Source: an archaeon (GTDB lineage: Archaea; Asgardarchaeota; Thorarchaeia; Thorarchaeales; Thorarchaeaceae). From it: a stretch of DNA of 28,591 nt. The notes beneath the pieces were generated by a model that was given only the letters and a program-made list of their open reading frames with translations, searched no databases and was not told where the DNA came from. Positions 16,641-27,642 of this stretch are shown here, piece by piece (the stretch's first letter is position 1; each line of letters starts with the position of its first letter). The stretch is from the NCBI GenBank assembly GCA_024275415.1, contig JAJRZD010000086.1:1-28591 (forward strand). The letters are read 5' to 3'. The position numbers and the translations under genes were made by a program.

Positions 16641-18263
16641 CTAGCTTGAGGAATACAAGTCACTCTTATGTGTTGGGAAAATGGTAAAGCCTATGAACCT
16701 CTTCTCAAAGGCCTTTCTCCCGGCGAGGCTGATGTAGTGTGTGGACTTTGCGACCATCTCAGCTTCTTTTCTCATATCAGATGATACGAGCATCATCTTG
16801 GCCCCTAATCCTGCTGTGTTCCCGACTTGCTTGATATTTTCTTTGGACACTGGAGGTAACAATCCAATGGACAGTGCAGCACTTGGGTCGATGTAGTTCC
16901 CAAATGCACCAGCTAAGATGATAGCATCGACCATCTCAAGAGGCACACCTGTTTCTGCCAACAGTACCTCGGCCCCGGCACGTATTGCAGCTTTTGCCAG
17001 TTGGATCTGTCGGACATCTTTCTGAGTGAATAGGATTCTCTTCTTTGCGGAGTATTCTCCTTCTTCAACGACAATGAATGCTCGTCCAAAGGAACCACCC
17101 TCGATAGTTCGGGGTGAATCCAGTATCCTGCCCTCGGGCGTCAGGACGCGATGATACAACATTTCCGCGACCACATCCACTATCGCAGACCCACACAACC
17201 CCCGAGGTATGACATCTCCGCTAATTGACAACTCTGGTGTCCTCATCTCTGCATCAAAGGTCACATGCTCGATGGCTCCGACCTGTCCGCGCATTCCATG
17301 AGTGACAGAGGCTCCTTCGAATGCCGAACCCGCGGCAGTGGAACAGGCATAGACATGTCCATCATGGGAAAGCACGATTTCCCCGTTCGTTCCTATGTCT
17401 ATTGCAAGGTAGGTGTTCTTGGTCTGGTGTAGTCCCTGTGAGAGGATGAGCGCAACAGTGTCGCTACCAATGAACCCTCCAATCAAAGGTGCAGCGTACG
17501 CCTCTCCTTTGATCGTTGAGAAACGTAACTCATCCGTATGCAATGTCAGACCCTCTGTCCTGCTCGGAACATAAGGCGCACGGCTTAGCTTGGAGATATC
17601 TAGTCCTAACACAAAGTGATGCATCACAGTGTTGCCAACAAAGCAGAGCAGGGTCAATACATCTGGCGTCAGCGAGAATTCCTTCAAGAGATTCAGACAC
17701 AACGATTCAATGGTATCGACAATTATCTTTTGAAGCATCACTGCATTCTTCGCATCTTTCTCAGAATAGACAAGCCGCGAAATCACATCATCACCATATG
17801 CGACCTGAGGATTCAGCACCGAGGTAACACCTAACTGGTCGCCTGTTTCTAGGTCTAATAGATATGCCACGACAGTAGTGGTGCCAACATCGATAGCGAT
17901 GCCATATTCTCCTTCTCTTCCTTGATCCACAGGTACCGAAACCTTTGAAACATTGGATTCATCCAAGATGGTTGCTGTTTTGAGCACATCGAGAAGTACC
18001 ACTCTCGTATCTGAATGGACTATATGCTGACAAGCAAGACGGACTCCTTGCTCGATTTCGTCTTCATTCAGGTGGAGTCTGTCTTGAGTTGTGGGCATAC
18101 GTTCTGGGAATAGCATGACTCTACATTTCCCACAGGTACCCTGGCCTCCACAATCTGATGTGACATAGTAACCGCAGTTTCTGATAGCCTCAAGGATCGA
18201 TATTCCTTCTCTCACTAGGCTTCGTTGACCGGACGGTAGAACGACCAAATGATGGTATTTCAC
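16641..18263 (-). CDS. Reductive activator of corrinoid proteins (RACo; 2Fe-2S plus ASKHA/DUF4445)
   Basis: N-terminal CGGQGTCGKC...RLAC [2Fe-2S] motif; GIAIDVGTTT; NPQVAYGDDVISR; IDIGTNGE; STAAGSAFEG; GLCGSA; LFTQKDVRQIQLAKAAI; LAGAFGNY; VGNTAGLGA. Confidence 0.92.
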   Translation of the reverse strand: MKYHHLVVLPSGQRSLVREGISILEAIRNCGYYVTSDCGGQGTCGKCRVMLFPERMPTTQDRLHLNEDEIEQGVRLACQHIVHSDTRVVLLDVLKTATILDESNVSKVSVPVDQGREGEYGIAIDVGTTTVVAYLLDLETGDQLGVTSVLNPQVAYGDDVISRLVYSEKDAKNAVMLQKIIVDTIESLCLNLLKEFSLTPDVLTLLCFVGNTVMHHFVLGLDISKLSRAPYVPSRTEGLTLHTDELRFSTIKGEAYAAPLIGGFIGSDTVALILSQGLHQTKNTYLAIDIGTNGEIVLSHDGHVYACSTAAGSAFEGASVTHGMRGQVGAIEHVTFDAEMRTPELSISGDVIPRGLCGSAIVDVVAEMLYHRVLTPEGRILDSPRTIEGGSFGRAFIVVEEGEYSAKKRILFTQKDVRQIQLAKAAIRAGAEVLLAETGVPLEMVDAIILAGAFGNYIDPSAALSIGLLPPVSKENIKQVGNTAGLGAKMMLVSSDMRKEAEMVAKSTHYISLAGRKAFEKRFIGFTIFPTHKSDLYSSS

Positions 18264-18454
18264 ACACTGTCACCTATCATGTATTGGGATGTGGACTTTC
18301 TAATCCCTTTCTGGCCTTTATGAGGATACCCGACAATGCTGTGAGAACACTTCCGGGCGTTCCTTCTATTCTCACACCGCCTATTAGAAGAGTTGACTGT
18401 TCTGTTGAGCAATCGAACAAGATAGACACGCTTCGATGTTCTCCACAGGCTGAT

Positions 18455-18473
18455 ATTTCTTAAGAGTAGTGGC
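18455..18473 (-). promoter_or_regulatory. 19-bp element, copy 1, upstream of RACo
   Basis: ATTTCTTAAGAGTAGTGGC is identical to 20512-20530. The minus strand reads GCCACTACTCTTAAGAAAT, with a TATA-like TTAAGAAA. Confidence 0.6.
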
Positions 18474-18630
18474 GTGAAGCAACGAACGTGGGATTTGGTC
18501 AACTAACATGCTGTTGCGAACATCTGTAAGAATCCCGGTCACAGCCACCTCTTCCTATGCACATTCCGCTCGTAAGAGTGAACAATTGCTCGGAATGATA
18601 TTCTTTTCAATTCGGAGCTAAGATATGCCA

Positions 18631-18644
18631 AAGGTCTTAATATA
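18631..18644 (+). promoter_or_regulatory. Probable BRE/TATA promoter of the CPBP gene
   Basis: AAGGT-CTTAATATA: a purine-rich stretch followed by a TATA-like box, upstream of the ATG at 18711. Confidence 0.4.
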
Positions 18645-18710
18645 GTGGGGATAGTCTGTCAATGTGCCGTTGTAGCGAAGAAAGTGGAGATTCGCAACGT
18701 GAAGAACGAT

Positions 18711-19517
18711 ATGACTGAGAGGCAGGATGATACAGAAGGGAACCGCACAGTGGCAGACACTGTAGGCACATTTGAAAAGTGGGGGTTATGGGGCACAGAT
18801 AGAAGGCCCCTCTCTTTGGATTATCCGACACTTTCTCTTGGCATTGCGATACTGTCAATTTTGAGTTTCCTAGGGTTCTTTAATCTGACAATTCGCTTGG
18901 TCTTGACCGCCCTTATTCAAGACTCAGAGTATGCTAGCACAATCTCTACCGTCCTCGGTCAGTTGCTACGGCTGTCCATTGTAATTGTATTTGTTTTTGT
19001 GAACAAAGGAAATCTACACCAATTCTATATTCAACGTAATCCATTCAAATTAAACAAGGATAACCATAATGAACTGAAGATTTTGTTGATTGGAATCGTA
19101 GGACTTGTTATCTATTCCCCCCTCTTTGCATTTTACAAGATTGGCACGATTTCCTTTATGCCGGTTGGTGAATATCCATCAACAATAATGTCGGCATTGT
19201 ATTATGGTATTGTCGAAGAGATTGAGTTTCGAGGAATCCTGTTTGTCTATCTCACGTATTGGCTTAGCAACAGAATAAAAGACGAAACGAAGCTAAGAGC
19301 AGTATCAATCATCGTGACCTCATTGATCTTTGGCCCGCTATACCACAACAGGTATTTCCTAACCGATATAGTCTTGCTCATAACCGTATCGATCTTCGGG
19401 CTGCTAATGCAATTGATTGTGTTGCGGTTCCAATCCCTTAATGCTGCTTGGATGCTTCATGCTCTGCTTGATATCATCCCATTCATCTTTATTGCAGGTG
19501 CTGTGACCACATTGTAG
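18711..19517 (+). CDS. CPBP (CAAX protease/Abi) family intramembrane glutamic endopeptidase
   Basis: Multi-pass membrane protein with GIVEEIEFRGILF (EExxxR), SLIFGPLYH (FxxxH) and AWMLHALLD (HxxxN/D). The start is placed at ATG 18711 (MTERQDD). Confidence 0.85.
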   Translation: MTERQDDTEGNRTVADTVGTFEKWGLWGTDRRPLSLDYPTLSLGIAILSILSFLGFFNLTIRLVLTALIQDSEYASTISTVLGQLLRLSIVIVFVFVNKGNLHQFYIQRNPFKLNKDNHNELKILLIGIVGLVIYSPLFAFYKIGTISFMPVGEYPSTIMSALYYGIVEEIEFRGILFVYLTYWLSNRIKDETKLRAVSIIVTSLIFGPLYHNRYFLTDIVLLITVSIFGLLMQLIVLRFQSLNAAWMLHALLDIIPFIFIAGAVTTL

Positions 19518-19571
19518 GGTTTTCTGACATTGTTCGACTCCGCGTTTATGCAGGCCATGTCCCGATGTCGT

Positions 19572-20486
19572 CTAGCTTATCATGTATCTTGGATGCGGTT
19601 TCTCTGGTCTCTCTCTGGTTTCCATGTGAATGCCAGACAATGCAGCATCGGCCATGGCAACTATAGGATACACGATAGGTGCGTGTTTTGCAGGCCCCAT
19701 CAAGACGAAATCTGCTCCGAGTACCACTGGCATCAAGTTAGCCCCGACCAATGCCGGTTCCTTTGCTCTCTGCCCGAATTTTGGAATCAACCCTTTCCAT
19801 GTGCTGACCGCGTTGTGAGCGCCACTACCAACGGGATATCCATATTTAGTCTTCAGAAGATGCTGCGTCTTGCAAGCGATACCGAGAGTGGGAATATCTA
19901 GAACCCCTGCATCTATGAGGATGTTTTTCACTCCCACCGACCTTGATTTGTTAATAAGCTGGTCTGCCAGTTCAACTCTTTTGTTTGAGGACACCAATGC
20001 ACTTGTGTCGAAAGTGAGAAGCAATGCATTCCTAAGTCCCGTGTCGTGGATGCTGTCATAGAGTATCTGCTCTGTGGAGGGGGTCAACGAGTTGATTATT
20101 ACCCGGTCTAGTATCCCCGCGTCCTTCGCGGTTTCGATTCCAGCGACATTCACCTCAGTCGAGTCTGAGCCATCTATGAGGAGTGGGAACTCCGTAGCAT
20201 CAGCAAGATATCGTAGATACCTATCCATTGCCTCTGGCGTAGTCCCTATGATGTCCAACATCGTGGAGAGACCTGTCCTCTCTGTTAGATCTGTCAGCAT
20301 CGCTAATGTCGCCTCAGTCTGTGTTACGTCCAAGTTCCCCATCTTTGGATCACGTACGTGCTTGTCAGAAGTGTAGAACAGCGAAGGAATTAGGACAGTA
20401 GGGATTTTTCCTGGTATCCCTCCGATCCTCACATTCCTGATTCGCAGAGTTGATTGTTCAGTCGAGTACTCGAACACGATAGGCAC
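19572..20486 (-). CDS. MtrH-family methyltransferase (methyl-corrinoid:pterin methyltransferase, MtxH/MtgA-like)
   Basis: IGGIPGKIPTVLIPSLFY, PLLIDG, RVIINS, ILIDAGV, YGYPVGSGAHNA and LGADFVLMGP. No other mtr subunits lie nearby. Confidence 0.85.
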   Translation of the reverse strand: MPIVFEYSTEQSTLRIRNVRIGGIPGKIPTVLIPSLFYTSDKHVRDPKMGNLDVTQTEATLAMLTDLTERTGLSTMLDIIGTTPEAMDRYLRYLADATEFPLLIDGSDSTEVNVAGIETAKDAGILDRVIINSLTPSTEQILYDSIHDTGLRNALLLTFDTSALVSSNKRVELADQLINKSRSVGVKNILIDAGVLDIPTLGIACKTQHLLKTKYGYPVGSGAHNAVSTWKGLIPKFGQRAKEPALVGANLMPVVLGADFVLMGPAKHAPIVYPIVAMADAALSGIHMETRERPEKPHPRYMIS

Positions 20487-20664: not shown

Positions 20665-21354
20665 CTATCTGTTCTTCTTGCGAAGGGCCTTGGCAAGTGC
20701 CATTACAAATTGCTCCATTGGTGGCATCGCTTCGGGCACGAGAACCACAGAAACAAACACATGGGGCTCCTTACGCGCAATTGAGAGACGTGTTAGATAG
20801 GGAGCGACACCGTCAAAACTCTCTCGAAATCGGGATGAATTAAAAAGCCTCTCACCAACCTCAGTATCGGATGTGACTATATAGAACCGGTCTCTCAGGT
20901 CTTCGATTGTCAGCTCACTGATACTATCCGGATGCGACTTCATTGATGTTTCCAGATTCTGTTGTTCCCTCCGAATTACTAGTTCAAGGTTCAGTGCCGG
21001 GCGCTTGGTCAGATTTGCCCGTATTTGGAGCTGGTCCGAGCGATGTCGTGCCTTGCAATAAGCAAGATGAAGGATGTTTGACCTGTCGAGTAGCAGGATT
21101 GTAGATTCAAGTTTTGGCAAAGGACTATCAGATTTTTGGTGATACGCGAATTTAGCTCCCGTATTACCTAGAAGTCTAACACTGACCTTTGATGTTGTTG
21201 ACTGAAACCGATTAGCAACATCCTGAGCAATCTTCCTGCGCAATCTTGAAGTGCCGTAACGTCCTATCATCCATGTCCCGATCAGGAAGAATGCCAGTCC
21301 GACGATGATTGCTTGTCCGGTCAGGGGGATGTCTTGCATTTGTTCGAACTCCAC
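20665..21354 (-). CDS. Single-pass membrane protein, probable CCDC47 (DUF1682, PAT complex subunit) homologue
   Basis: N-terminal TM followed by [23 protein letters not shown]...[10 protein letters not shown] and [14 protein letters not shown]. These parallel remembered human CCDC47 segments [22 protein letters not shown]...[10 protein letters not shown] and [14 protein letters not shown]. Confidence 0.6.
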   Translation of the reverse strand: [229 protein letters not shown]

Positions 21355-21413: not shown

Positions 21414-21663
21414 GGCATGGCTCTACTGGTGTGTTATACTTTTGAACACAGACAGGTAATCAAGGTTTCTTGTGAAAGAATCTACCAGTCGTTACTGCTG
21501 AGGTATCGTACTATCTTTAGAAATCATTCCAGTCAGACCTTTTGTTTCTCAAGAAACACAATTAATATATCCTCCTTCAGTTGTACCAGGATGGAGTCGG
21601 GATACCATGAATTCCAGCAAGCAAGTCGAGGGCACACGTGAGGTCTGTGTCGAAGCATGGAAC

Positions 21664-22224
21664 ATGATATTTGGTCGTGCAGTCTTTGTTTATCTTTTCC
21701 TCCCTCGCTCATGGATAACTGGCTACCAGCTGAATGATCCATTAGTAACAAATCGTTTTCTTTACAAGGATCGTGTATGGGTTGGCTCTGGCGAGATCGA
21801 ATGCCTTATTTCTCGTGAACATGGGCAACAGAAGCATCCTGACCTTGATTTCAGAACTAAGATACTAGTTGATCTGAAAAAGGGATTCCCAACCCCTCCG
21901 AGTCCACAAAGCCTTCGTAAGCAAGCTGTAAAGAAAGGCAGGGAAGTGGTAGATTGTGGAGAACTGCATACCGGTGGCCATTCGGGAAGCTATATCCTTT
22001 GGAAGTCATACCGTCCACGTTTCGGGATTTTTGGATCGCCACGTCTCAATGCGCAATTGCAGGGATTCATACCGTGTGAAGAAACCTCACGACTAATAGA
22101 AGTCATCTGGACCTCTCCCACTCCCAGCCTTGTTATTGATCAATCCGAGGTACTCATAGAGGCTCTGAACTCGATTCTTTGTCATGGACATGATATCGAA
22201 TCGTATGAGGACAACATCCTCTAG
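21664..22224 (+). CDS. Hypothetical protein (possible PsbP/Mog1-like fold, possible metal site)
   Basis: The ORF has protein-like composition. The start is placed at ATG 21664 (MIFGRAVFVYLFLP); the track start is 21607. Contains GGH, PCEETSR and a near-terminal LNSILCH. Confidence 0.65.
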   Translation: MIFGRAVFVYLFLPRSWITGYQLNDPLVTNRFLYKDRVWVGSGEIECLISREHGQQKHPDLDFRTKILVDLKKGFPTPPSPQSLRKQAVKKGREVVDCGELHTGGHSGSYILWKSYRPRFGIFGSPRLNAQLQGFIPCEETSRLIEVIWTSPTPSLVIDQSEVLIEALNSILCHGHDIESYEDNIL

Positions 22225-22374
22225 AGGCACTAGTTTGTTCTAATTGTTTCTAATGTATCAAATTCGGCAGTCCAAAAGTTTACCGACAGATTTAATGCTA
22301 GGATATACTATCGTTTTGTAACCGAGACCGAGAACTACACAAAACAAGTGAATCGGCCTTGGAGGTGGTTAGGT

Positions 22375-24156
22375 ATGCAACAGTTCTCACCTGCGATTTT
22401 TATCGGGGTTGGACTTGCGATCTATATTGTTGGCTATTTACTATATGCTAGGTATGTGGATCGCAATGTCTGGAGTCCGAATCCAAATGTAAAAACACCT
22501 GCACATATGTACATGGATGGAATAGAATTCTTTCCCACCTCAAAAAGTGTGCTATTTGGATTCCAATTCAAATCCATTGCTGCTCTTGGTCCCATCAGTG
22601 GGCCATTTATAGCATTGGTATTTGGCTGGTTGCCAGCATTTCTGTGGATAATATTCGGTACGTTCTTCATCGGGTGGATACATGACTACACATCCGTCAT
22701 GATCACTGTGCGTAGCGAAGGTGAATCCTTTGGTCCAATTACCTATCGGATGGTTGGATCACGAGCTCGCAAAGGTCTGATGGGTTTCATAATCTTCTAC
22801 CTGATTCTAGTAATGTCCGTATTCGCGTATATCTGTGGAGCATTCTTCAGGGCATTTACCCAAAGTATTGTTCCGACGATATTCGTAATTGTTGGGGGTG
22901 TGTTATCCGGAGTCATGCTGTACAAGCTGAGAATGAACATCGTTGTTTCCACAATTGTGGGTCTGGGACTCATGGTTGTCGGTATTTGGGCTGGGATATG
23001 GCTCTATCTACAGGGACTTCTGGATTGGGTTAGTTCTACACCTGTTGAACTGTGGATTGTTGTCGCTTTGATTCTGGTGTACTTCGGTGCCACATTGGCG
23101 ATAACAGATTGTGCTCAACCTGTAAACTATGTTGCCTTCTGGCCATGTTTCGTTGCAGTGATACTGATCATTGCCGGTGCTTTGCTCAGCCCCTTGACGA
23201 TGGCACTTTATCCGGCTGATCCTGTCCTAGTCCAGACTGAGCCGATCATAACCTTCTACGATGATAACTATGGTCCGCTTTGGCCTATACTATTTGTGGC
23301 AATTGCATGTGGTGCGGTGTCTGGATGGCATAGCTTGGTTGGTAGCAGTGCAACTGGCAAACAGATTGGGTCTGAAATTGATGTTCTTCCAGTTGCTGGT
23401 GGTTCTATGTTTCTTGAGGGGCTGTTGGCGATGAGTGCTATGTCAGCATACGTCGTCATTGCACCTGCAAGTGTGAATCCGGCATGGTTCGTCAATTTTC
23501 CAACTGGCGCAGCAATCCTTACTCAGGGGATGTTTGGTGGTGCCGCTGTGGCTGGAGTGATACTGGTCGCTTTCTTTGCAATGGTGCTAGAACTCTACGC
23601 TATCACTGTATTGCAGCTCATGCCACGGTTCTTCCGTTTGGCAGCAGCAGACCTTGCTGGAACCTCTGCAGTTGCTCCTCTATTTCGGAACAAATGGATT
23701 GGTGCTGGAATCGGAATACTCATTGCGTTTGCCTTTGCAGCCACTGGTGCGTGGTATCACCTCTGGATGTTATTCGGCGGTAGTAATCAGTTGCTCGCAG
23801 GGCTTGCGTTAATGCTTGCCTCAGTCTATCTGGTGCGTGCAAAGAAACCGTCGTACTATACACTGATACCCGCGGTTTTCATGATACTGACCTGTGAAGC
23901 TGCGCTTCTTTGGGAAACATGGATCTTCGTTCGCGCACTATTGACGGTTGGCTATTTCGCTAGACCCGGGAGTCTGATTGGTGATATGGCAGCTGCTGGT
24001 AACATATTGCCAGCAGTAGCGCTTACATGGATATTCATAGCTCTCTCTCTGATTCTGTTTGTTCTTGGATTGCTTGTGTTTGCGGACACATGGGCAGCAT
24101 TGAAACGCAGTTCTAAGGAAGCTAAGGGATCCGTTGAGGTAACTGTATCTGCTTAG
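22375..24156 (+). CDS. cstA: CstA (carbon starvation protein A)-family transporter
   Basis: TPAHMYMDGIEFFPT, LFGFQFKSIAALGPISGP, FGWLPAFLWII, WIHDY, LWPILFVAIACGAVSGWHSLV, GSMFLEGLLA and LFGGSNQLLAGLAL. RBS GGAGGTG at 22361-22367 precedes the ATG at 22375. Confidence 0.92.
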   Translation: MQQFSPAIFIGVGLAIYIVGYLLYARYVDRNVWSPNPNVKTPAHMYMDGIEFFPTSKSVLFGFQFKSIAALGPISGPFIALVFGWLPAFLWIIFGTFFIGWIHDYTSVMITVRSEGESFGPITYRMVGSRARKGLMGFIIFYLILVMSVFAYICGAFFRAFTQSIVPTIFVIVGGVLSGVMLYKLRMNIVVSTIVGLGLMVVGIWAGIWLYLQGLLDWVSSTPVELWIVVALILVYFGATLAITDCAQPVNYVAFWPCFVAVILIIAGALLSPLTMALYPADPVLVQTEPIITFYDDNYGPLWPILFVAIACGAVSGWHSLVGSSATGKQIGSEIDVLPVAGGSMFLEGLLAMSAMSAYVVIAPASVNPAWFVNFPTGAAILTQGMFGGAAVAGVILVAFFAMVLELYAITVLQLMPRFFRLAAADLAGTSAVAPLFRNKWIGAGIGILIAFAFAATGAWYHLWMLFGGSNQLLAGLALMLASVYLVRAKKPSYYTLIPAVFMILTCEAALLWETWIFVRALLTVGYFARPGSLIGDMAAAGNILPAVALTWIFIALSLILFVLGLLVFADTWAALKRSSKEAKGSVEVTVSA

Positions 24157-24248
24157 TGGAAAAGAGTAGCCTAACGGCTACCCTTCCCTTTTTTAGTCCA
24201 TGTAGAAACACTAATCTGACACGGTTCGGTGTTCTGCTCACTACGATA

Positions 24249-24524
24249 ATGGCGGAAATTTTTTTGCGGATTCTCAAGGTTATTCGGGACACTTTAGAAG
24301 GAATTTGGAAGGCTCAGAAAGCAGGTTTGGCTGGGCCGCTGATCAAAGCAAAAGTGGACAATGACAATGCTCTGATGTTTGTGATTCTTGGTGATATCTT
24401 GGGATTTCCATTCCAATCGACTTTCTACTCAAGACTGTTTTTGGTTTCTTTAATAGAACAGATTCCTTCATGGAAAAAGAGAATTCTGAAAGAACGTGAC
24501 ACTTTGGAGTACATGCACGATTAA
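24249..24524 (+). CDS. Small CstA/ArsA-associated protein 1 (cory-CC-star-like, no terminal CC), about 91 aa
   Basis: MAEIFLR...LMFVILGDILGFPFQSTFYSRLFL...WKKRILKERD; clearly paralogous to the next ORF. An alternative GTG at 24156 overlaps the cstA stop but adds an implausible N-terminus. Confidence 0.72.
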   Translation: MAEIFLRILKVIRDTLEGIWKAQKAGLAGPLIKAKVDNDNALMFVILGDILGFPFQSTFYSRLFLVSLIEQIPSWKKRILKERDTLEYMHD

Positions 24525-24622
24525 GACTTGTCCAATCGTTATTTGATAATGTATTGGACAGAGCCCATTTGATAATAAGAGTTATAGGGAACATTGCTAT
24601 CTATCCTTGCGGGGATTACCTA

Positions 24623-24910
24623 ATGAATGGCAAAGAGAACCCTGACGCTTCTAAAGAGCGTCGAGGCGCAAAAGAGACAGTAAAGGATTTCTTCTATGGT
24701 ATGGCCATGCAAGGTATGGCAAGGTATGCCCTGAAGACGAGGATGTACCTTGAACAGCTTTTCATGCTCATCACATTGGGTGATATGTTGGGCATTCCTA
24801 TCCTCCCTCCCTACTATTCTCTCAAGCTCCTACCTTATGCCGTTCCTAATATCAAGACTTGGAAACGTGGGCTATTCAAGGAACGTGACTTCACGGACGC
24901 TCTCTTCTAG
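24623..24910 (+). CDS. Small CstA/ArsA-associated protein 2 (cory-CC-star-like, no terminal CC), about 95 aa
   Basis: VKDFFYG...LEQLFMLITLGDMLGIPILPPYYSLKLLP...WKRGLFKERD. Resembles the remembered cory-CC-star core (DLFMLLVFSEMLGVPNP..YYTLELLP...W). Confidence 0.78.
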   Translation: MNGKENPDASKERRGAKETVKDFFYGMAMQGMARYALKTRMYLEQLFMLITLGDMLGIPILPPYYSLKLLPYAVPNIKTWKRGLFKERDFTDALF

Positions 24911-24959
24911 GATAATTGGTGATTCCTTATCTGCAATGAAACGGATATGGTGAACACTC

Positions 24960-25967
24960 TTGGTAAAAAACATGAGCAGCTTTTACGAAGATAACCCTGA
25001 CCTGAAAATTGCGGTGTTTGCCGGGAAAGGAGGCCTTGGCAAGACCACCTGCAGTGCTGCACTGGCGATGTGGCTTTCGAAAAAGAAACAACGTGTTCTA
25101 TGTTTCAGTACGGATCCTCAGGCGTCTTTATCAGACATTTTCGAAAAAGATGTCTTCGGGAAAGGTTCTGTAACTTTGGATAAGAACCTCTATGTGATGG
25201 AAATTGATGCAGACAAGCGAATTGCTGCGTTTCAGGAAGAAGTCCGTCAAAAGATAAGAGACATGTACGGTATTGATGAGCTTCCAAAAGAAATTGATGA
25301 ATACATAAATGCCGCGGGAGCAGAACCTGCGATGCACGAGTCTGCCACTTATGACGCGATGGCCGGATTGTTGGCCTCCGACGAGTATAACTTCCATGTG
25401 TTCGACATGCCGCCCTTTGGGCATGGCATTCGGATTGTTTCAATGGCACGAATCCTCGATGTCTGGGTAGAAAAGATGGAAGAAACCAGAAAGAAAGCAC
25501 AAGAGTATGGTGAATCTGCTTGGAAGATGCAGCAGAGGACATCTGGTGCAGGTCAGGATGAGATGCTTGCGGAGTTGCTTGAGATTCGGAAGAAGCTCAG
25601 TTTCTTTCAGGATATTCTTACCGACAACAAGCGAACCGCATTCTATATGGTCATCACGCCTGAGAAAATGTCAATCTTGGACACTGAACGCGCATTGAAG
25701 ATGTTCGAGCAGATGGACATCACCCTCACCGGTGTAATCATCAATCAAGTGTATCCCAAAGAGTTGCTCCAAAGGAAAGATTTGGGCGATTTTCTCCGGA
25801 AACGAATTGAGATGCAGCAGAAGTATATGAATGAGATCAAAGATAAGTTGGGCAAACATGTATGTGCAGTCATCCCGATGTTCGATCGAGAGCCTAAAGG
25901 TCTCGAGATGATCCAGCAGGTAGCAGACATAATGATGAACTGGGATGGGAAGATAACGGAGGAGTAG
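24960..25967 (+). CDS. ArsA/Get3/TRC40-family ATPase, subunit 1 (catalytic motifs intact)
   Basis: Deviant Walker A GKGGLGKTT, switch I STDPQASLSDIF, switch II DMPPFGHGIR, TAFYMVITPEKMSILDTER and IINQV. Single ATPase domain. The start is TTG 24960 or ATG 24972. Confidence 0.9.
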   Translation: MVKNMSSFYEDNPDLKIAVFAGKGGLGKTTCSAALAMWLSKKKQRVLCFSTDPQASLSDIFEKDVFGKGSVTLDKNLYVMEIDADKRIAAFQEEVRQKIRDMYGIDELPKEIDEYINAAGAEPAMHESATYDAMAGLLASDEYNFHVFDMPPFGHGIRIVSMARILDVWVEKMEETRKKAQEYGESAWKMQQRTSGAGQDEMLAELLEIRKKLSFFQDILTDNKRTAFYMVITPEKMSILDTERALKMFEQMDITLTGVIINQVYPKELLQRKDLGDFLRKRIEMQQKYMNEIKDKLGKHVCAVIPMFDREPKGLEMIQQVADIMMNWDGKITEE

Positions 25968-25970
25968 AAA

Positions 25971-26981
25971 ATGAGTGATTTCAAATTCAAGGACTTCGTC
26001 GAGCGACATCCAAACATCAAGTTTTTCTTCACGGGTGGTAAGGGAGGTGTAGGTAAGACTGTTAGTGCCGCTGCTATTGCCCAATATTTTGCTTCTCAGG
26101 GACGGAAGGCACTTCTTGCCTCTCTAAATCCAATCCACTCCCTTTCGACGTTGTACGGGCAAGATATGTGGGGGAAAGGAATTCAGAAGATTGAAGGAAT
26201 CGATAATCTGTGGGGTGTTGAGGTCGATATCAAAGAGAAGATATCGACATATCGTGACCAGCTTAGCGAACGCATCACCTCATTTCTCAAGTGGGCTGAT
26301 ATTCCTGTTGACCCCTCGGCATTCATTGATATCGCAGTCACTAATCCGGCCTTTGAAGAGTCGGCCCAGTTTGACACCATGACTGATATCATGCTTGAGC
26401 ATGGCGACTCTTATGACGTAATTGTGTTTGATTGTGCTGCTGTTGCCAATGCTATCCGGTTGCTCGGTCTTAGCAAGATTTACGACTTGTGGCTTAGCCG
26501 CATGATTGAGAGCCGGAAGGAGGCTTTGTCTTTACGTGTGCAACTATCTTTCAGAAGAGATAGGGTCATGGAAGAGGTCAAACGTGATCCGATGCTTGCG
26601 GATCTCTTGAGACAACATGAGAAGAACCGTAAAGCGAAGGAAATACTTAGTGACGCAGAAAGAACGGCATTCGTATTCGTGACAATCCCATTGGCGCTGC
26701 CGATTGCTGTCGTGCAGCGGTTCATATCGATGGTCCGCGCTTTTGACATCCCTGTCGGAGGAGTCTTTGTTAATAGGGTCATCCCACAGGAGGCAGCCGA
26801 ATCAGACTCGACGGACTACATGAAGAATAGCTATCTACAGCAATCACGATACCTAGATATGATACAAGAAAAATTGGGCGATTTGGTATCAGCCTATGTC
26901 CCTCTGTATCCCACAGAAGTGGCTGGTGTGGATGGGATTGCAAAGTTCTGTGATGACATGCTGAACTTTAATCCTGAGTAG
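25971..26981 (+). CDS. ArsA/Get3/TRC40-family ATPase, subunit 2 (degenerate catalytic motifs)
   Basis: GKGGVGKTVS; switch I SLNPIHSLS (Asn in place of the catalytic Asp); switch II DCAAVANAIRLL; TAFVFVTIP; FVNRV. RBS GGAG, with a 3-bp gap after subunit 1. Confidence 0.9.
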   Translation: MSDFKFKDFVERHPNIKFFFTGGKGGVGKTVSAAAIAQYFASQGRKALLASLNPIHSLSTLYGQDMWGKGIQKIEGIDNLWGVEVDIKEKISTYRDQLSERITSFLKWADIPVDPSAFIDIAVTNPAFEESAQFDTMTDIMLEHGDSYDVIVFDCAAVANAIRLLGLSKIYDLWLSRMIESRKEALSLRVQLSFRRDRVMEEVKRDPMLADLLRQHEKNRKAKEILSDAERTAFVFVTIPLALPIAVVQRFISMVRAFDIPVGGVFVNRVIPQEAAESDSTDYMKNSYLQQSRYLDMIQEKLGDLVSAYVPLYPTEVAGVDGIAKFCDDMLNFNPE

Positions 26982-27285: not shown

Positions 27286-27642
27286 ATGGCAATTACAGTA
27301 GAGCCCGAGGATATTATTAGGATTGACATCAAGTATCGTGAAATCGGTGACACAAGTGATGGGTATGCGGTCGTGTATCTTCGTGAGCATATACCAGAAG
27401 TACGTACATTTCATTTCACATTCTCGATGCATAACGAGGATTTTCAGAGGCAAGTTGTGGCTTTGACAGAAACAGGCCAACAATCAGGCTATCTGCTCAC
27501 TTTGAGTCGGAAATCTCGGTTTGTTCTTGCACTGGAGAAGGCAATGGTGGGTGCATTAGCCGGCCTAGAATATCAAAGTCAAGGTTGTCCCTCTTGTCGA
27601 ATGATTGATACATTTGTGTCCTCCAAACGTTATTCAGAGTAG
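27286..27642 (+). CDS. Hypothetical protein
   Basis: 118-aa ATG-started ORF with protein-like composition, preceded by GGGTGTG. Contains a CPSC motif near the C-terminus. Confidence 0.6.
   Translation: MAITVEPEDIIRIDIKYREIGDTSDGYAVVYLREHIPEVRTFHFTFSMHNEDFQRQVVALTETGQQSGYLLTLSRKSRFVLALEKAMVGALAGLEYQSQGCPSCRMIDTFVSSKRYSE

Follow-up and report, generated by a model that had tools for sequence, protein, structure and literature searches.

The 28,591-nucleotide (nt) stretch analysed here (the window; contig JAJRZD010000086.1 of assembly GCA_024275415.1, from an Asgard archaeon of the Thorarchaeaceae) contains a run of five forward-strand genes. They encode a CstA-family permease, two small proteins (small A and small B) and two Get3/ArsA-type ATPases (AT1 and AT2). 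The successive gaps from cstA to AT2 are 92, 98, 49 or 61, and 3 nt, the third depending on whether AT1 begins at a TTG or at an ATG. A preliminary description of the sequence had given five co-directional genes with these gaps, which our check of open reading frames (ORFs) bears out, its 49-nt gap corresponding to the TTG start at 24960. The range that it set for the system, 22375-26981, is too narrow. Two genes upstream of cstA, one for a protein with a single transmembrane (TM) helix (CstY-like) and one for a soluble protein (Z), co-occur with the module in 34/36 and 23/36, respectively, of the related loci that have at least 5 kb of sequence on each side (full-flank loci). The module comprises at least seven genes, encoding CstY-like, Z, CstA, small A, small B, AT1 and AT2. 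The locus is an Asgard-archaeal copy of the module of cstA, cstX and arsA homologues, in its form with two ATPases and two CstX-like proteins.

The association of these genes has been described before. Castillo and Saier (PMC2963123, Int J Microbiol 2010:187373) described cstA together with single-domain ArsA homologues of ~330 aa in 26 operons of bacteria and archaea. The ~90-aa protein CstX is encoded in 24 of these operons, and some archaea also have CstY, a protein of ~210 aa with a single TM segment. Their data set includes a locus of the same 1+2+2 form as the core of the window locus, that of Pyrobaculum arsenaticum, where a single CstA is accompanied by two CstX paralogues and by a pair of neighbouring ArsA homologues that are 31% identical. 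In the authors' proposal, CstX is the linker through which the ArsA homologue energises CstA. They also reported co-evolution of CstA, CstX and the ArsA homologues, with congruent trees, and found that the Asp of the S-x-D motif is replaceable only by Asn (PMC2963123).

The operons of that study and the window locus have in common CstA, single-domain ArsA homologues without the ArsA cysteines, and the absence of ars genes. Compared by description, small A and small B fit CstX in size (91 and 95 aa) and in their position between cstA and the ATPases, and the 229-aa one-TM protein fits CstY. The window copy differs in that it comes from an Asgard-like archaeon. The preliminary description had seen in the arrangement a new type of transport system; the idea is not new, as energisation by an ArsA homologue through CstX had already been proposed, with a 1+2+2 example. 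The gene association and the energisation hypothesis are thus known. New here are the seven-gene extent of the module, a fixed Asp/Asn asymmetry between the two ATPases, fusions of small B to AT1, and CCDC47-like and PsbP-like folds in the two upstream proteins. In the literature searched (CstA with ArsA-like ATPases, DUF7990, and prokaryotic CCDC47 relatives) we found no experiments on the module beyond the genome-based 2010 paper.

Conservation of the module in archaea and bacteria

A pattern scan with one genome per species gave 266 relatives of small B. We fetched 78 loci and analysed them by tblastn and ORF clustering. The nearest relatives are metagenome-assembled genomes of Thor-, Hermod- and Promethearchaeota, with a small B 83-87% identical to that of the window. 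CstA is 72-83% identical in the nearest Asgard loci and 38-48% identical outside the Asgard loci. CstA, small B, AT1 and AT2 occur together in 34/36 full-flank loci. At least 32/36 encode another small protein of divergent sequence, in a variable position, and at least 31 loci combine it with those four. The order small B-AT1-AT2 is constant in essentially every locus with room for it, including those with cstA on the opposite strand.

The module is found in Asgard archaea, Bathyarchaeia, Korarchaeia-type Thermoproteota, Methanomethylicia, Thermoplasmata, Bacillota, Chloroflexota and Thermodesulfobacteriota. The cstA gene is upstream and on the same strand in Asgard archaea, Thermoplasmata and bacteria, and downstream and convergent in Bathyarchaeia. 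Because its position and strand differ between lineages while the linkage holds, the module has stayed together through rearrangement. The arrangement that the preliminary description had noted at a single locus is therefore conserved, far beyond chance.

Conserved neighbours could have functions that are related and yet physically independent; for example, the ATPase pair and the small proteins might have a regulatory role that does not concern CstA. The placement of cstA on the opposite strand in Bathyarchaeia would agree with this, as would three loci with small B and neither ATPases nor CstA (L014, L048 and L051, the last with small B adjoining the Z and CstY-like genes) and a locus with a small B-AT1 fusion and no cstA (L081). 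The L081 locus is interrupted by a transposase-family gene, however, and the linkage of CstA, small B, AT1 and AT2 in nearly all full-flank loci spans two domains of life despite changes of order and strand. The published trees of the three families are also congruent (PMC2963123). We consider independent functions highly improbable.

In some Thorarchaeota loci the run contains three small genes. Four Thor/Hermod loci have an extra copy of small B (72-80% identical) on the opposite strand, ~3 kb downstream (L003:12303-12566 (-), L004:8116-8379 (-), L006:12282-12545 (-) and L007:12300-12563 (-)). In Bathyarchaeia (L011:4794-6759 (-) and about 10 other loci), the small-protein genes are immediately preceded by genes for a class-V aminotransferase and a LysE-type exporter, which may hint at amino-acid or keto-acid metabolism. 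No ars genes were found among the neighbours examined.

The permease is the only CstA found in a search of the genome. It matches PF02554 in Pfam (E 1.9e-95), has about 14 hydrophobic peaks and is 28% identical to E. coli CstA. Its score against the E. coli equivalog model NF011590 is 138 bits, well below the cut-off of 1188 bits and short of equivalog-level similarity. A hairpin with a 6-bp stem and a T-rich run behind it lies 10 nt past the cstA stop codon, where it could terminate or attenuate transcription before the accessory genes are reached. In consensus scans for promoters and terminators, the region had no more sites than shuffled sequences. A search for RNA-sequencing runs that contain the locus listed none. 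The positions of the module genes and associated features are listed in Table 1. Farther upstream (window 16641-20486 (-)) are genes for a RACo-type corrinoid activase (540 aa) and a stand-alone MtrH-like methyltransferase, apparently unrelated to the module.

Table 1. Module genes and associated features in the window, with examples of the k10 family from other loci
Feature	Source	Position	Strand	Length (aa)	Description
CstY-like	window	20665-21354	-	229	N-terminal TM helix and CCDC47-like fold
Z	window	21607-22224	+	205	soluble; PsbP/Mog1-like fold; putative metal site
cstA	window	22375-24156	+	593	CstA-family permease; ATG start, GTG at 22348 possible alternative
hairpin and T-run	window	24166-24195	+		possible terminator or attenuator (consensus scan)
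small A	window	24249-24524	+	91	divergent CstX/DUF7990-like paralogue
small B	window	24623-24910	+	95	DUF7990 (PF25952)
AT1	window	24972-25967	+	331	Get3/ArsA-type ATPase; ATG start, TTG alternative at 24960; catalytic motifs intact
AT2	window	25971-26981	+	336	Get3/ArsA-type paralogue
CPSC protein	window	27286-27642	+	118	C-terminal CPSC motif; 3' of AT2
k10 example	L031	4546-4941	-		CxxC (or CxxxC) family
k10 example	L060	4489-4893	+		CxxC (or CxxxC) family
k10 example	L046	8613-8981	+		CxxC (or CxxxC) family

The ATPase pair and the small proteins

Both ATPases match PF02374 (AT1, E 8.6e-73; AT2, E 1.7e-57) and score above the cut-offs of PF02374 and TIGR00345. They are 30% identical to each other over 327 aa (E 9e-51). 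Orthologues score much higher with their own type than with the other (mean 426 vs 156 bits and 398 vs 174 bits). In a maximum-likelihood tree AT1 and AT2 fall on opposite sides of a branch with 100/99 support and have parallel internal topologies, so the duplication took place before the module spread. Small A and small B are also paralogues (34% identity over 59 aa, E 1e-11). The two duplicated and diverged pairs named in the preliminary description are thus real and ancient. It had further proposed that the ATPase is a heterodimer; the old paralogue pair stands, and the heteromer itself is plausible, given the ancient divergence and the parallel topologies. In both ATPase trees the bacterial and Thermoplasmata sequences (L031, L056 and L059-L069) group together with good support inside the archaeal part of the tree, as one clade among archaeal ones, a placement that suggests transfer of the whole module between domains.

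The two ATPases differ in their catalytic motifs. The deviant Walker A motif (P-loop) is intact in both types. AT1 has the P-loop GKGGLGKTT and the switch I motif TDPQASL in 67/67 orthologues, and its switch II retains Gly-His. In AT2 the switch I motif is NP(V/I)HSL, with Asn in place of the catalytic Asp, in 62/62 orthologues, and the PTGH-type switch II motif is lost. The corresponding D57N variant of yeast Get3 binds ATP and does not hydrolyse it. By analogy, AT2 should bind ATP without hydrolysis, so that one site of the dimer would be live and the other locked.

The solved structures closest to AT1 and AT2 are archaeal Get3 proteins (3ug6 and 3zq6; E 1e-43 to 1e-54). The genome encodes a third Get3/ArsA homologue (contig C111, L079:1023-1982 (-)) with the motifs DPAHSL and DTAPTGHT, a CKFC zinc clasp and Met/Gly-rich helical subdomains; this is presumably the housekeeping tail-anchor factor. 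Like Get3/TRC40, AT1 and AT2 have the SIMIBI fold, with the switch I Asp and switch II present in AT1. The CxxC clasp is absent from both, and judged by composition their helical subdomains have no Met-rich client groove (27-43% DEKR and 2-3 Met, vs 21-28% charged residues and 5-6 Met in canonical Get3). They also differ from Get3 in forming a paralogous pair with one Asn-substituted site. The lack of the clasp and of a Met-rich subdomain marks AT1 and AT2 as a specialised pair which, to judge from sequence, is neither the tail-anchor targeting factor of the cell nor ArsA.

The comparison with ArsA gives a similar picture. ArsA-ArsB likewise combines a Get3/ArsA-type ATPase that has two non-equivalent nucleotide sites with a permease of the secondary-carrier type. 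In ArsA (~590 aa, with a Cys triad) the sites belong to two fused halves, and here to two separate genes. Scores of 96-97 bits against the ArsA equivalog TIGR04291 (cut-off 650 bits) place neither ATPase in that family. The alignments of AT1 (A4) and AT2 (A5) have no invariant Cys, and the pair differs from ArsA in lacking metalloid-binding cysteines and a conserved DTAP motif. The permease is CstA instead of ArsB or Acr3, and the ars context is missing.

Neither small protein has a match in the Pfam copy that we used, which does not include the PF25952 model, and matches to the NCBIfam model cory-CC-star are weak and below its cut-off (4e-4 and 2.7e-7). PF25952 (DUF7990) is a precomputed annotation of small B's own cluster and of the 120 relatives listed, and small B is therefore a DUF7990 protein. 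It has 680 homologues in archaea and bacteria (57-100% identical among the 120 listed) and 32 invariant columns (alignment A6), and is more conserved than CstA or the ATPases, in line with a protein that has several binding surfaces. Small A types have diverged much further, with G-D-x-L-G-x-P, Y-Y/S, W-K/R and K-E-R-D-like positions kept (alignment A7). There is no invariant Cys in either alignment. The most hydrophobic 19-residue window of the small proteins (Kyte-Doolittle hydropathy 1.5) lies ~22-28 residues before the C-terminus. A membrane-spanning helix is doubtful because this value is below the usual TM threshold and the stretch contains Asp, Gly and several Pro.

One bacterial lineage has in-frame fusions of small B to AT1 (P0126, 414 aa; P0129, 428 aa; P0153, 421 aa). 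At the P0153 locus, the only fusion locus examined, the next gene is of the AT2 type and keeps the Asn. This locus (L081:6039-8266, on a 352-kb bacterial contig) looks disrupted, as the N-terminus of the small protein is missing, the gene comes directly after a transposase-family (DUF772) gene, and cstA is not nearby. The fusion argument therefore depends mainly on P0126 and P0129. Together, the invariant adjacency and the in-frame fusions point to a physical link and support the prediction that small B binds AT1. The preliminary description had the ATPase docked on the permease through an adaptor made of both small proteins; the small B-AT1 part of this is strengthened, and for docking on CstA the evidence is gene linkage. 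A complex prediction in which small B was the partner of CstA and small A scored 0.00 (partner pLDDT about 50), which counts neither for nor against such docking.

Other leads were rejected. An apparent fusion of small B to CstA (P0125, 640 aa) is an artefact, its Arg-rich middle being typical of a GC-rich gene read out of frame, and P0155 likewise looks frameshifted. A LETM1_RBD match of small B in the Atlas scored 0.82-0.83, below the trusted level. We also considered homology to YbdD/YjiX (DUF466, PF04328), as E. coli cstA-ybdD and btsT-yjiX similarly consist of a CstA-family permease gene followed by the gene of a small conserved protein. Despite a G-x-P ... F-[KR]-E-R likeness seen by eye, hhalign gave probabilities of 1.2% and 0.4%, and there was no Pfam match at E<=5. 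Profile comparison thus gives no support for a relationship between DUF7990 and YbdD, and the E. coli pairs have no ATPase partner.

The CstY-like protein, Z and other Cys-pair proteins

The CstY-like protein is predicted to have a single N-terminal TM helix, its strongest 19-residue hydropathy window (1.85) covering residues 9-27. A basic flank follows the helix, so by the positive-inside rule the remaining ~190-aa domain should be cytoplasmic. The sequence has no Pfam match at E<=5 and no NCBIfam match. The AlphaFold model (pLDDT 93.5) was compared with known structures by Foldseek. The top matches in the PDB come from multipass, TMCO1 and SND3 translocon structures (chains 7tm3_4, 9i78_4 and 6w6l_7; E 7e-9 to 1e-6, query TM-score (TMq) 0.59-0.75), the best being 7tm3_4 (TMq 0.75, E 7e-9). 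The twelve best Swiss-Prot models (E 1e-10 to 5e-8, TMq 0.64-0.75) consist of eleven that are animal CCDC47 or its equivalents from S. pombe and Arabidopsis, with yeast YNR021W in twelfth place. The CCDC47 match covers residues 134-395 of the human protein (of 483), that is, the TM helix and the cytosolic alpha/beta domain, and on this basis the model has the CCDC47 fold. In both searches the next match after the translocon and CCDC47 proteins is mycobacterial TtfA (6t84), a weaker match that is likewise an accessory factor of a transporter, MmpL3.

CCDC47 belongs to the PAT complex of the eukaryotic multipass translocon. The CstY-like protein resembles it in the TM helix and cytosolic domain and lacks its luminal N-terminal region and the C-terminal part beyond residue 395. 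The genomic partners of the CstY-like protein are a permease and Get3-like ATPases, not Sec61 and the ribosome, and it occurs in bacteria and archaea.

The Z gene was found in 42/79 sources, some copies being cut off by the fetched range. Z has no Pfam or NCBIfam match. Its model (pLDDT 89.8) matches the PsbP/Mog1-like fold with a Foldseek probability of 1.00. With VIA-align the closest structure is CyanoP 2xb3 (Z-score 11.5; 143 residues, root-mean-square deviation 3.3), and type VI secretion system immunity proteins (~10.5), PsbP (9-10), Mog1 (9.1-9.2) and the Eag chaperones SciW and EagT6 (8.0-8.3) also match. Going by the model, Z is an alpha-beta-alpha sandwich of the PsbP/Mog1-like type.

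These folds bring up a different explanation, that the genes form a dedicated module for membrane-protein biogenesis or quality control. A Get3-like heterodimer, the CstY-like protein and Z would chaperone hydrophobic segments, with the small DUF7990 proteins or CstA as clients to be inserted or assembled into a working permease complex, and hydrolysis by AT1 would release the client at the membrane. The match of the CstY-like model to CCDC47 over both TM helix and cytosolic domain speaks for this, as does the match to TtfA, an accessory factor of a transporter. Z shares its fold with Eag chaperones, which shield the TM helices of effectors, although PsbP and Mog1 score higher, the roles of PsbP-fold proteins are diverse, and a shared fold does not establish function. 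Archaeal Get3 proteins are the closest solved relatives of AT1 and AT2, but the charged, Met-poor, claspless helical subdomains of the pair offer no obvious groove for a TM segment. The small proteins have a moderately hydrophobic segment in a tail-anchor-like layout, but one that is interrupted by Asp, Gly and Pro and is not hydrophobic enough for a typical TM helix. The extreme conservation of small B, moreover, would sooner be expected of a permanent subunit than of a passive client. Overall we regard a biogenesis module as rather unlikely, but as the main and a serious rival of the coupling mechanism discussed below.

The preliminary description had offered, as an alternative, that the ATPase is an insertion chaperone for the permease, and this alternative becomes somewhat more credible in view of the CCDC47-like and PsbP/Eag-like models. 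In its boldest form, the module would be a prokaryotic ATP-driven machine for membrane-protein assembly, a Get3-type pair with a CCDC47-type protein, dedicated to a CstA-type permease and found in Asgard archaea. We think this distinctly unlikely. If it were true, two parts of the biogenesis machinery of the eukaryotic endoplasmic reticulum, the GET pathway and the PAT complex, would have prokaryotic relatives that already acted together.

Z also has a putative metal site. H125, C157 and a Cys-His pair (C192-H193) are invariant (alignment A3), and the pair forms the C-terminus in most orthologues. Two other protein families with Cys pairs accompany the module. The 118-aa CPSC protein (cluster k18) occurs after AT2 in 11 loci, all of them Asgard, and has no Pfam or NCBIfam family match and no usable Atlas match. 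The k10 family consists of ~135-aa proteins with a CxxC (or CxxxC) near the N-terminus and is found at 23 loci in Thermoplasmata, bacteria, and some Thermoproteota and Bathyarchaeia. It has no Pfam match. In P0128 and P0130 a k10 domain is apparently fused to small B. The CPSC protein may be a lineage-specific accessory, the Asgard counterpart of the CxxC protein of other lineages.

Such proteins could bind a thiophilic species and hand it over to the ATPase complex, to be moved through CstA much as in ArsD/ArsA/ArsB, in which case the module would handle thiols, metals, metalloids or selenium and the substrate would not be pyruvate or peptides. Besides the invariant residues of Z, the k10 proteins and their fusions to small B, and the CPSC protein of the Asgard loci, the Cys-Cys end of E. 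coli YbdD, which is encoded beside cstA, is in keeping with this. AT1, AT2 and both small proteins are without an invariant Cys, unlike ArsA, and the neighbours examined include no ars genes. The aminotransferase and LysE-type exporter of Bathyarchaeia point instead to amino-acid or keto-acid metabolism, and the reading of k10 as thioredoxin-like comes from motifs only. A thiophilic substrate therefore seems very unlikely to us.

A candidate coupling mechanism

We tentatively favour a mechanism in which the two ATPases, as an asymmetric heterodimer that docks by way of the small proteins, couple ATP to the activity of CstA, and we hold it to be possible, at somewhat less than an even chance. 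It is the simplest model and a more detailed version of the published proposal (PMC2963123), and it draws on the conserved linkage and gene order, the Asp/Asn asymmetry, the small B-AT1 fusions and the published co-evolution of the three families. ArsA turns the carrier ArsB into an ATP-driven pump. In the proposed mechanism AT1 and AT2 would form an asymmetric Get3/ArsA-type heterodimer. AT2, with Asn for the catalytic Asp, would keep ATP bound without hydrolysing it and hold the dimer together, while AT1 would cycle. The DUF7990 proteins would bind the ATPases, small B binding AT1, and together with the single-pass CstY-like protein they would tether the ATPase to CstA at the cytoplasmic face of the membrane. 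There, ATP binding and hydrolysis would energise CstA or gate it, in the way that ArsA acts on ArsB.

Several points weigh against this mechanism. The ATPases and small proteins are tied to CstA by gene linkage only, and in Bathyarchaeia cstA is convergent with the other genes and not co-transcribed with them. E. coli CstA and BtsT are proton symporters that function without an ATPase, and to our knowledge the way in which a SIMIBI ATPase drives a carrier is not understood even for ArsAB. The relatives of the CstY-like protein and Z suggested by the models, CCDC47 and the PsbP/Eag-type proteins, include some that handle TM segments in membrane-protein assembly, a role that would fit biogenesis better than energisation. 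Coupling also leaves the recurrent Cys-pair proteins (Z, k10 and k18) unexplained.

The module ties a carrier family that acts alone in E. coli to a pair of Get3/ArsA ATPases and tiny, highly conserved proteins in many archaea and bacteria. Once the coupling is worked out, either ArsAB would cease to be the sole example of a SIMIBI ATPase that drives a secondary carrier, or a dedicated prokaryotic system for membrane-protein assembly would come to light. The live and the Asn-substituted sites, the small B-AT1 fusion, the partner with a CCDC47 fold and the PsbP-fold protein with its Cys and His residues make the question of what the module does directly testable. The same features link that question to the origin of the biogenesis factors of the eukaryotic endoplasmic reticulum.

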